DNA from: an uncultured Mycoplasmatota bacterium | GTDB taxonomy: Bacteria; Bacillota_I; Bacilli_A; RF39; UBA660 | Reading direction: 5' to 3' | Length of the DNA stretch: 64,000 nucleotides | NCBI GenBank assembly: GCA_900546275.1 | Contig: URCH01000003.1 | Coordinates: 37,991 to 101,990 of the forward strand | Program-made: the position numbers and the translations under genes | Notes under the pieces: model-generated | What the model was told of the DNA's origin: nothing | The model's database searches: none | The model's input: the letters and a program-made list of their open reading frames with translations, nothing else | Part shown: positions 5,193-8,487 of the stretch, piece by piece | Layout: every line of letters begins with the position of its first letter | How positions within the stretch are numbered: the stretch's first letter is position 1

Positions 5193-5599
5193 TTAATCTT
5201 TTTTTCTTTTTTTATTCATTATATAACTAAATAGTTTTCTAAGTTCTGTTTTTGTTTGTGCATCCATTTTTATAAAGTTTAAACGTATTTGATATCCACT
5301 ATCAAACGATAATAATATAGCACCTGATGTTGCTTTAAAAAGAACTGCACCGGTTGAAATTGAATCATAAGGTATTATATGTATTTTTTGCTTTTACTTA
5401 TTGGATTACAATCAAAAAGTACCATTCTGTCATTAGTAAAAACTCCCCTATCACTTAATGTTTTATATGCCTTATATATTATTTCTCCTTCATCAACATA
5501 ATCCGTTACATATTTAGGTAAACTAGTTTTATCTATTTCTTTACTAAAATTAAAGTATTTTGTTAATTCTTTATATTTAACATATGCCATTTTCTTCAC
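5193..5599 (-). pseudogene. Bacterial PH-domain (bPH, YdbS/YdbT-like) protein interrupted by a frameshift
   Basis: The 74-aa ORF 5375-5599 ends ...CNPISKSKKYI*. The +2 frame continues in-register as IPYDSISTGAVLFKATSGAILLSFDSGYQIRLNFIKMDAQTKTELRKLFSYIMNKKRKKD*, the conserved core of bPH domains. The shift lies next to an A6 run (gcaaaaaatac). Confidence 0.5.
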
Positions 5600-5626
5600 A
5601 TCCTATTATAGGTATAACATAAAAAA

Positions 5627-5650
5627 GCATTTATACAATAGTATAAATGC
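5627..5650 (-). terminator. Rho-independent terminator downstream of the lepB remnant
   Basis: Perfect 10-bp inverted repeat GCATTTATAC-aata-GTATAAATGC. On the minus strand it is followed by TTTTTTAT. Confidence 0.5.
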
Positions 5651-5761
5651 AACTGACTACCATAGTACAACATATTGTACTTTAGGTTCTAGAGTTTTGC
5701 GTTATTACCTTTCAATAACTTTGCCTGTGATAATTTTATAAGATTTTAATTTAAATGTCAA

Positions 5762-6291
5762 TCATTTAACAATTTTTAATTTATTTAGTGGCCATAATCT
5801 TATCCATGCTTTACCAATTATATCTTCTTTTTTTATAAGTCCAAAATTTCTTCCATCCATAGAATTGTTTCTATTGTCTCCTAACACTAGATAATATCCT
5901 TCTGGAATAACATCATATCCAAGTTCTTTTATATCAAAATCATCTGTTGTTGTATCTATAAATTCTTCTTTTACAGGATTCCCATTTACATACATTACAT
6001 TATTATTATATGCAATATGTTCATTTGGAAGTCCTACAATTCTCTTAATTAATAATTTTTCGTCATACTTAAGAACACTACTTCATTTCTTTTAATTTCT
6101 CTAAATTTATATACTATTTTATTAACTATTAAAACATCCCCCTCTTTTAAAGTAGGGCTCATAGAGGGTCCAATAACTTGTTGAAATGATACAATGTATA
6201 TAACTATTATGAGTATAATTAAAATCATTATAATATATTTCAATGAATCTTTTAAAAATTCTTTAATATCACGAAAATCCATGACGATCAC
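5762..6291 (-). pseudogene. lepB: Signal peptidase I (LepB/SipS family), disrupted by a frameshift and three consecutive in-frame TAA codons
   Basis: The N-terminal ORF carries the TM helix and box B (GPSMSPTL). The C-terminal ORF carries box E (GDNRNNSMDGRNFG). Box D (LLIKRIVGLPNEHIA) is encoded between them in the C-terminal frame but is followed immediately by taa-taa-taa. The N-terminal part is in a different frame and ends ...KNY*. Confidence 0.65.
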
Positions 6292-6400: not shown

Positions 6401-6760
6401 ATGAACTACTATTTTCCATATGGAATAACAGGCTATCCATATTTTAGTGTACCACGTACAAGTACAGGATTATTTAGTAGGATATTTAGAAATGGTATAA
6501 ACTGGAGTGGTATTTTAAATGGTACTCAACGAACATTAAATATTATTAATCAAACAATTCCTACTATAAAACAAATAACTCCTGTTGTAAGAAATGCGAA
6601 AACAATGTTTAAAGTTATGAATGAGTTTAAAAAAACAGATACTGTAAATAGTAATACAGTATCTACTAATAATGAAAGTACAAATAGTAACAATATAGAA
6701 AATATAAATACAGTAAATACAAATAATGTAGATAATGGTGGGCCTACATTCTTTGCTTAA
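6401..6760 (+). CDS. Hypothetical protein with an aromatic-rich N-terminus and an Asn/Thr-rich low-complexity tail
   Basis: ORF only; no recognisable domain. It could be a small secreted or spore-associated protein. Confidence 0.3.
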   Translation: MNYYFPYGITGYPYFSVPRTSTGLFSRIFRNGINWSGILNGTQRTLNIINQTIPTIKQITPVVRNAKTMFKVMNEFKKTDTVNSNTVSTNNESTNSNNIENINTVNTNNVDNGGPTFFA

Positions 6761-6772
6761 AAAAACTATTTT

Positions 6773-7396
6773 TTATAGTTCTTTTTTTATTATATTTAAT
6801 ATTTGAAGCTGTCTTTGTAATTTGTTTTCATCGTATTTAGTAATATTTTTTTCGATATTATTTTTTAACTCATTTAAATATTTAACATAAGTTTCATTTT
6901 TTTTAAGACTTAATATTGGACCTAACAACAACTCTTTTTCAGTATATTTTTTTAAACCTTTTTTAAATTTAATTATAATATAGTATTTATCTTCAAATAT
7001 AATTTCTTCATCTATTATAAAGTAACCTAACTTGCATACATTTTTTCTAAGTTCATATATATTTTTATTAGATTGACAAATTAAATTATCAATATTTTTT
7101 TTATTTATTATCTTAATTATATTTTTTGTACCCATACCACTTATTATAACTGTACTATCAGGTAAAATATTAATATTTTCAAGTCCATTATTTAAAATAA
7201 CTTTTACATTTGAATTATTTTTTTCAATGTTTTTTTTAGCTTTTAATACACATTCTTCACTTACATCTATTGCAATACAGTTTTTATTAAAATTATTTGA
7301 TAAATATATATCTAATAATGCATGATCACATCCTACATCATATACATTTTTTGTATCTACTAAGTTTGCAATTGTTTTTAATCTTTTAGATAACAT
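6773..7396 (-). CDS. trmK: tRNA (adenine22-N1)-methyltransferase TrmK (YqfN-like class I SAM-dependent methyltransferase)
   Basis: It lies immediately downstream of sigA, as in the B. subtilis dnaG-sigA-yqfN operon. SAM-binding motif VYDVGCDHALL. Length ~207 aa. Confidence 0.7.
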   Translation of the reverse strand: MLSKRLKTIANLVDTKNVYDVGCDHALLDIYLSNNFNKNCIAIDVSEECVLKAKKNIEKNNSNVKVILNNGLENINILPDSTVIISGMGTKNIIKIINKKNIDNLICQSNKNIYELRKNVCKLGYFIIDEEIIFEDKYYIIIKFKKGLKKYTEKELLLGPILSLKKNETYVKYLNELKNNIEKNITKYDENKLQRQLQILNIIKKEL

Positions 7397-8487
7397 TAGT
7401 CACCCATATAATCTTTTAGTTTTCTAGATCTTGATGGATGTCTAAGTTTTCTTAATGCTTTAGCCTCAATTTGTCTTATACGTTCTCTTGTTACACCAAA
7501 CATTTGACCAACTTCTTCAAGAGTTCTTGATTTTCCATCTTCAAGTCCAAATCTTAATCTTATTACTTTTTCTTCTCTTTCAGTAAGGGTTAATAAAACA
7601 TCAGCTATTTCATCTTTTAACATTTCATTTGTTGCATATTCTTCTGGACTCATATTTCTTTCATCTTTTATGAAATCACCTAAATGTGAATCATCTTCTT
7701 CGCCTATTGGTGTTTCTAAGCTTACAGGTTCTTGACTAATTTTATATATTTCACGTATTTTATCTATTGAAACATTCATTTTTTTAGCTAATTCTTGTTC
7801 AGTTGGTTCACGATTAAGTTCCAAAGTTAATTGTCTTTGAATACGAGCAAGTTTATTAATAGTTTCTACCATGTGAACTGGAACTCTTATTGTTCTTGCT
7901 TGATCTGCTATTGCTCTTGTTATAGCTTGTCTTATCCACCAAGTAGCATATGTAGAAAATTTATATCCTTTTGTAACATCAAATTTGTCTACTGCTTTCA
8001 TTAATCCTATATTACCTTCTTGAATTAAATCAAGAAATAACATTCCACGTCCAACATATCTTTTAGCTATACTAACAACTAAACGTAAATTTGCTTCTGC
8101 AAGAATTGTTTTAGCTTGTTCGTCACCTTCAAGTATTCTATCAGCTAAATCTAATTCTTCTTGCATTGTTAAAAGTTTTATTTGACCTATTTCTTTTAAA
8201 TACATTCTAACTGGGTCATTAATTGTTAAATCTTTTGTCAAAACTTCATCATCTAATAATAATTTGTCTCCATCATCTTCATTTGTTCCATCTTCGTTTG
8301 CATCTTCTGATACTATAGCTATATTATTTTCATTAAAGACGTTATATAAATCATCTAAGCTATCAGCATCTAAATCAAGACCTTTTAAACTAGAAGCTAA
8401 TTCTTCATAAGTTAAAAAACCTTTTTCTTTACCTTTTTTTACTAATTCTTGTTTTCTTTCTTCATAACCTTTTATTTCATTTATCAT
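7396..8487 (-). CDS. sigA: Primary RNA polymerase sigma factor SigA/RpoD
   Basis: Regions 1.2 through 4.2 are present ([53 protein letters not shown]). An acidic N-terminal region is also present. Confidence 0.95.

Follow-up and report, generated by a model that had tools for sequence, protein, structure and literature searches.

Type I signal peptidase (SPase I) is normally an essential enzyme, and a locus in an uncultured RF39-type bacterium raises the question of whether its gene for this enzyme has been lost, by what lesion, and how such a loss could be tolerated. The locus lies in a 64-kb stretch of DNA (64,000 nucleotides, hereafter the window). The preliminary description placed an SPase I gene at positions 5762-6291, with its catalytic boxes spread across two reading frames, and considered it to be inactivated by a frameshift together with three consecutive in-frame TAA codons. 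Frame translations and Pfam matches bear out both the location and the division between two frames, and show that the gene is encoded on the minus strand. The parts of the gene are as follows:

5762..6282, minus strand: disrupted type I signal peptidase gene (S26A, TIGR02227 type), from profile matches and translated frames
6280..6282, minus strand: start codon ATG of the gene, with a Shine-Dalgarno sequence AGGTGA at 6293-6288
5762..5764, minus strand: natural stop codon TGA of the gene
6049..6282, minus strand: N-terminal ORF of 77 aa, comprising the membrane anchor and box B with Ser40 (TCT, 6165-6163)
5762..6082, minus strand: C-terminal frame of 106 codons and a stop, with box D including Lys80 (AAG, 6046-6044) and box E (GDNRNNSMDGR)
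6076..6078, minus strand: codon Val69 with a 1-nt deletion, from alignment (GTAG-TGTT in the window against GTAGTTGTT in all intact relatives)
5999..6007, minus strand: AAT AAT AAT, encoding Asn93-Asn95 of a YNNNV loop, from frame translation

The N-terminal ORF (MDFRD...GPSMSPT...RNEVVFLSMTKNY) ends out of frame in ...EVVFLSMTKNY before a TAA codon at 6051-6049, and the frame that is open from 6082 to the TGA at 5764-5762 encodes SSVLKYDEKLLIKRIVGLPNEHIAYNNNVMYVNG...GDNRNNSMDGRNFG...KLKIVK. Each piece matches its own part of the Pfam Peptidase_S26 profile (positions 8-67 and 70-168, respectively), and the two pieces joined give a single Peptidase_S26 match (PF10502, 146 bits). When the missing T is restored, the gene encodes a 173-aa SPase that matches TIGR02227 with 156.5 bits (cut-off 47) over profile positions 6-162 of 162, and that also matches the structure PDB 4NV4 (E=5e-29) and the SpsB protein of Staphylococcus aureus (E=7e-23). 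The repaired protein has one N-terminal membrane anchor, box B (GPSMSPT, Ser40), box D (LLIKRIVGLP, Lys80) and box E (GDNRNNSMDGR). Ser40 (GPSMSPT) and Lys80 (LLIKRIVG) align with the corresponding motifs in 4NV4 and SpsB, and we take them to be the nucleophile and the general base, respectively, as assigned from the known SpsB and LepB enzymes. By its sequence, the repaired protein is thus a canonical bacterial SPase I of the Ser/Lys P-type. The window locus itself, as read from its frames, is a pseudogene or null allele of the TIGR02227 family, with Ser40 and Lys80 not contained in one translatable ORF.

The base that is missing is the T at window position 6077, within GTAG[T]TGTT, as determined against 20 intact orthologues. 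The relatives read GAA GTA GTT GTT CTT AAG (E V V V L K) at this site, where the window has GAAGTAG-TGTTCTTAAG. When the joined sequence was used in a protein search, intact proteins of 173 aa with 97-98 % identity (P0001-P0004) were retrieved, and alignment of ten intact loci with the window showed approximately 2 % SNPs and one gap (~98 % nucleotide identity). When compared with ten further orthologues with an otherwise identical protein, the deleted T was again the sole difference. The comparison with the orthologous locus in relatives, which the preliminary description had proposed, thus uncovered an extra T in all 20 intact orthologues, and the SPase gene carries exactly one lesion, a deletion of 1 nt. 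This deletion shifts Lys80 into the -1 frame, while Ser40 remains in the N-terminal ORF. No ATG, GTG or TTG codon occurs before Lys80 in the C-terminal frame, the first being the ATG at 5995, past box D. Following the loss of the T in codon 69, translation would end after 77 residues, which include the anchor and the nucleophile Ser40, and Lys80 and the remainder of the catalytic domain would lie in a -1 frame that has no canonical start ahead of Lys80, so that an active enzyme is not expected. Inactivation by a frameshift, as originally suggested, is supported by the separation of these two residues through the loss of one T.

The three consecutive TAA codons, which were said to follow box D directly, derive from a misreading of the frame. 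In the frame of box D (LLIKRIVGLPNEHIA) the DNA reads GCA TAT AAT AAT AAT GTA ATG (6013..5993), or A-Y-N-N-N-V-M, in which the A is the last residue of ...NEHIA and the remaining codons occupy 6010..5993, and the YNN-type loop that had been expected at this place is present as Y-N-N-N-V-M. The string TAATAATAA does occur at 6008..6000, where it represents the same DNA one base out of register and translates as I-stop-stop-stop-C, but the C-terminal frame has no in-frame stop until its natural TGA. The preliminary description had further attributed the supposed stops to an expansion of a (TAA)n trinucleotide repeat. However, the AAT-AAT-AAT codons are unchanged in all intact SPase orthologues that were aligned and YNNN is retained in the sister species at 71 % identity, and therefore no repeat expansion took place. 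Likewise, TAATAATAA occurs 26 times in the window, which has a GC content of 24 %, against 18.9 ± 5 occurrences expected from shuffles, a frequency close to chance. Three-frame translation and the comparison with relatives thus rule out both the in-frame stops and the expansion, to which we assign no probability at all.

An altered genetic code was also considered and rejected, as the long ORFs in the window end in TAA (42), TAG (9) and TGA (4) and the C-terminus of the SPase at TGA matches those of its orthologues. The standard code is thus supported, in agreement with the earlier argument that TAA terminates genes in this DNA. Two public gene calls of 192 aa (P0004 and P0134) carry 19 extra residues (…KIVKWLTFELKSY…), with the TGA at 5762-5764 read as Trp. 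These variants are code-4 gene calls of 'Tenericutes-like' bins, and TGA is a stop codon here.

The distribution of the broken allele is informative as to whether it is real. The exact 77-aa N-terminal fragment (P0121) is found on at least 23 contigs and in 43 collection blocks, derived from at least 13 independent gut metagenomes (ERR414324, SRR20608016, ERR11564768, SRR28454882, ERR9190663, ERR14023372, ERZ1310599, SRR28455040, ERZ28564145, ERZ1310670, SRR28454979, ERR11284012 and SRR27538981) and assembled with MEGAHIT, SPAdes or Logan, and the identical deletion is present on every P0121 contig. The window SPase with the base restored and an otherwise identical protein sequence (P0129) occurs on 34 contigs (72 blocks), while the commonest SPase allele of the species (P0131) occurs on 529 contigs, and TT stands at the deletion site in more than 700 contigs of the species. 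On these rough counts, which are not unbiased frequencies, the broken allele is a minority in the species (a few percent of contigs) and is approximately as common as the intact allele within its own sub-clade. The locus L022/L093 shares 99.8 % DNA identity with the window across 1.8 kb and has both the SPase gene and the neighbouring bPH gene intact. A comparison of approximately 16 kb of the window with ten intact relatives yields 42 SNPs and only two indels, namely the SPase deletion and a frameshift in the bPH gene, which is described below. The preliminary description had raised the concern of an assembly error, in which case the true sequence would read TT and the gene would be a contiguous ORF of 173 aa. 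In favour of such an artefact, only one base of a short T run is deleted and some carrier contigs are of low coverage (e.g. cov 3-5 in L017 and L020). Against it stand the recurrence of the same deletion across independent samples and three assembly pipelines, the more than 700 TT contigs of the same species, the occurrence of the deletion on several SNP haplotypes, and the fact that the sole other indel in the 16 kb, the bPH frameshift, is itself replicated in independent contigs. An artefact is thus effectively refuted, and we consider it extremely improbable.

The SNPs in the flanks of the gene (6250, 6427 and 5727) occur in all four allele combinations with the deletion, and in neighbour-joining trees of the flanks the broken strains are scattered among the intact ones, at 0.1-0.4 % divergence. 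Monophyly of the frameshifted strains was not found in these flank trees, the flanks being mosaic. The four gametes and the interleaved trees indicate that the deletion is a polymorphism in a recombining population, where a single deletion event would be segregating; recurrent deletion at a non-repetitive TT appears less likely. The frameshifted alleles carry few private mutations and no further degenerative ones, which fits a young allele and does not show relaxed constraint. Other rare truncated SPase alleles are found in the species (P0122, P0123 and P0128), all on short contigs, for example one with an A5-to-A4 contraction in GACGAAAAATTA that leads to ...KYDENY-stop; these could be genuine independent knockouts or low-coverage errors. 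Among the frameshift strains, L012 has an in-frame deletion of 21 bp in the yqfQ-like gene (equivalent to window 6422-6442), while L017 and L020 are rearranged past bPH (equivalent to window ~5132 and beyond), with a transposase of the rve family and pgk replacing pilC (L020 3670-6022).

A real deletion might nonetheless leave a functional enzyme if the two frames were joined during translation or the two products after it. The frames overlap by 12 codons (6082-6049), and a -1 ribosomal frameshift in this overlap, for example at G_AAA_AAU (6061-6055) ahead of the TAA, would produce a full-length SPase of 173 residues in which at most seven, in the loop linking boxes C and D, are substituted, and a junction peptide ...EVVFLSMTKNLLIKR.... 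The exact wild-type length is regained by a -1 slip anywhere from 6082 to 6052, the A-rich near-slippery site has a hairpin downstream (-16.9 kcal/mol; z = -2.7), and the allele persists at an appreciable frequency. However, the codons at 6084-6049 include no X_XXY_YYZ heptamer, with G_AAA_AAU the only near match, and the hairpin starts approximately 15 nt past the site, while a spacing of 5-9 nt between slippery site and structure is usual (dnaX and IS911-type sites). The same sequence is furthermore present in intact alleles, which argues that nothing here evolved for frameshifting, and the uninterrupted gene is both ancestral and in the overwhelming majority, being uninterrupted in the other clades of the species and in 40-odd related species. 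Recoding therefore has little support and is very unlikely. Alternatively, the halves might be made separately and reassemble as an active peptidase, given that gene callers predict two ORFs of 77 aa that each match Peptidase_S26. The second of these, however, begins at Met97, past box D, and thus lacks Lys80; its frame has no canonical start upstream of that residue, and on inspection of its sequence the C-terminal piece has no signal or anchor with which to reach the outer face of the membrane. The absence of both a start codon and an export signal excludes a split enzyme, for which we see practically no likelihood. The explanation that we regard as probable is that of a genuine and recent null allele of SPase I, which is tolerated as redundant or dispensable and forms part of a stepwise decay of three genes. 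The species concerned is an uncultured member of the Bacilli from the human gut, of the RF39 or 'Tenericutes bacterium' type and with a GC content of 24 %, in whose natural populations the null allele is segregating.

The surroundings of the gene bear on this decay. As the preliminary description stated, the locus lies between pilus genes (pilC (T2SSF), a prepilin peptidase and pilB (T2SSE)) on one flank and dnaG, sigA, trmK and a yqfQ-like gene on the other. The following features lie on the pilus-gene side of the SPase gene:

5733..5761, minus strand: promoter-like site (TTGACA, 17-nt spacer, TAAAAT), a consensus match only, just upstream of the riboswitch
5645..5735, minus strand: c-di-GMP-I riboswitch aptamer (RF01051), 61.9 bits against a gathering threshold of 35, E=1.1e-9, model positions 1-87 of 87
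5619..5650, minus strand: predicted intrinsic terminator (stem 5650-5627, T-tract 5626-5619), the riboswitch expression platform
5193..5590, minus strand: bPH_1 (bacterial PH domain) gene, frameshifted by an A7-to-A6 run contraction at 5389-5384

The c-di-GMP-I riboswitch is situated directly past the SPase stop codon. In the sister species (L027) the same riboswitch is found past the SPase gene (7541-7625), and it is absent from the eight loci of more distant relatives that were tested. Between the riboswitch and bPH, the other clade of the species (L001 and L009) and the sister species (L027) carry the gene of a secreted repeat protein. This adhesin reaches up to 796 aa in the relatives and incorporates GA-like, GA and DUF1542 repeats, with the signal peptide MKKKIIGIAVFLFAALFMFTFANPA. 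The short-read contigs of adhesin-bearing strains often break within its repeats of ~74 aa, with L002-L008 ending there and L001 containing an N gap. The adhesin-bearing arrangement, which is present in L027, L001 and L009, is the ancestral one, and the adhesin gene (1.4-1.6 kb) is missing through a clean deletion in all strains of the window sub-clade. The junction of this deletion is the nonamer CTTTTTTAT (5627-5619), which occurs both in the terminator of the riboswitch and in that of the adhesin gene; in L001 the two CTTTTTTAT T-tracts are located at 5657-5665 and 7289-7297. As a result, the riboswitch and its terminator in the window now abut the bPH pseudogene and the pilC-pilD genes.

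The frameshift that had been noted in the neighbouring bPH gene was confirmed as the A7-to-A6 contraction. It is carried by the window, L011, L014, L018 and L023, and by none of the remaining SPase-frameshift contigs, and every contig that has it also has the SPase frameshift. The bPH gene is intact (132 aa) in most relatives, among them many with the SPase frameshift. The proposal of a small zone of gene decay comprising SPase and bPH is supported by the restriction of indels to these two genes in the 16 kb compared with the ten close relatives, and the zone is larger than was first recognised, as the whole adhesin gene between them has also been deleted. The lesions are nested, with the adhesin deletion in the whole sub-clade, the SPase frameshift in part of it and the bPH frameshift in part of those strains. 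The decaying neighbourhood would thus comprise SPase I, the secreted adhesin under control of the c-di-GMP riboswitch, and bPH. From this nestedness it can be suggested that the adhesin deletion came before the SPase I frameshift, and that the bPH frameshift followed in a subset of strains. Against this reading, about 16 related species have no gene between SPase and bPH and both are intact, and the link with the loss of the adhesin rests on a single historical sequence of events.

The loss is unexpected, as SPase I is usually essential and the orthologous gene is uninterrupted in all of the approximately 45 RF39-type species representatives examined, among which the nearest SPase of those scanned is that of UMGS1045 (71 % identity). 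Its tolerance suggests that this lineage either can dispense with SPase I or has a redundant enzyme. In favour of dispensability, the null allele has persisted in many hosts, the SPase-bPH pair accounts for both indels in the 16 kb, and the other rare truncated alleles (P0122, P0123 and P0128), some of which are possibly errors, occur in the species. Against it, the SPase gene is conserved throughout the order, and the window still has an intact gene for a D-Ala-D-Ala carboxypeptidase, the leader of which is of the typical cleavable kind. A tblastn search of the 64-kb window detected no second S26 gene, and an HMM search of 63 related loci detected extra S26-like ORFs only immediately beside the main SPase (L029 and L071). 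These are short (103-145 aa; L029 10566-10877 and L071 10696-11133), lack box E and are located immediately downstream of the main gene. Weaker S26 matches in L085 (1363-4427) and L086 (9884-14395), from low-GC Bacilli MAGs of Hadza samples, were rejected as paralogues; they are SipA-type SPase homologues with 'SDERD' for GDNR, encoded inside sortase-type pilus loci with a vWA tip adhesin and LPXTG pilins, and are unrelated to the window's gene and not housekeeping enzymes.

The pairing of the two flanking genes extends well beyond the species. The bPH_1 gene is found on the same strand and 3' of SPase in at least 27 of approximately 45 RF39-type species, despite different outer flanks (module loci L027-L073; e.g. 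L030 10001-10908, L037 8721-13314 and L071 5928-12458). The gap between SPase and bPH is 10-70 bp in about 16 species and otherwise contains 0.4-4 kb of intervening genes. In 13-14 loci these genes encode large secreted proteins with a signal peptide ending in (T/V)F(T/V)FA(N/D/G)P, some of which have Ig-like surface domains. The association of SPase, surface proteins and bPH is conserved and may reflect some functional link. Both flanking genes are also intact in the species where nothing intervenes, and a dedicated peptidase is therefore not demonstrated.

Two further readings of the loss are unlikely. The frameshifted gene might be the sole SPase I of a bacterium with a reduced genome, in which case a lineage present in many human guts would live without SPase I, as some Mollicutes do, or be rescued by low-level -1 frameshifting within the 12-codon overlap. 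In a milder variant, the SPase would be dedicated, as part of an SPase-adhesin-bPH module, to adhesins with the conserved ...FTFA(N)P signal peptide and would decay once the c-di-GMP-controlled adhesin was lost. The recent null allele of a redundant or dispensable SPase I is the preferred explanation. It represents a natural knockout of a usually essential gene, at appreciable frequency, in an uncultured gut commensal; the frameshift is useful as a sublineage marker and hints that the enzyme is dispensable or redundant there. If the complete genome had no second SPase I, the organism would be a natural test case for SPase-independent secretion. Through the SPase module, a bacterial PH-domain protein of unknown function could furthermore be tested for a connection with protein export. 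A literature search found no description of the SPase-surface protein-bPH arrangement in RF39, no paper combining RF39 with signal peptidase and nothing relevant on SPase I pseudogenes.

Several known systems share features with this locus. The repaired SPase resembles the SPase I of Gram-positive bacteria (S. aureus SpsB, PDB 4WVG; PDB 4NV4; Bacillus subtilis SipS type; MEROPS S26A) over the full length of TIGR02227. Unlike these, the window gene is interrupted after codon 69 and its Ser and Lys do not occur in one polypeptide. Signal peptidases dedicated to neighbouring substrates are encoded in the tapA-sipW-tasA operon of B. subtilis and in streptococcal pilus loci (SipA/LepA; PDB 4N31 and 4K8W). 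The RF39-type loci are similar in that the SPase gene is followed by those of large secreted surface proteins, and then by bPH, and decay of the SPase appears to have followed once the window lineage had lost its adjacent adhesin. In contrast to the ER-type SipW or the catalytically dead SipA, however, the enzyme of the window is of the canonical Ser/Lys P-type, its dedication is only putative, and in about 16 related species both SPase and bPH are retained with nothing between them. In S. aureus, SpsA is an inactive full-length SPase I paralogue without the catalytic residues, fixed beside the active SpsB. The window likewise shows an SPase I copy without function in a Firmicute, where another enzyme presumably does the work, but here the copy is a frameshifted minority allele with only a presumed active partner. 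The c-di-GMP-I (GEMM-I) riboswitches (RF01051) of Clostridia precede adhesin and type IV pilus genes, similar to the 61.9-bit aptamer and terminator platform found here upstream of bPH-pilC-pilD and, in the relatives, of the adhesin. The window, however, has lost the regulated adhesin, and its riboswitch is joined directly to the bPH pseudogene. The SPase of the window is a pseudogene-type allele of a well-known family, and its disruption is an ordinary recent gene loss.
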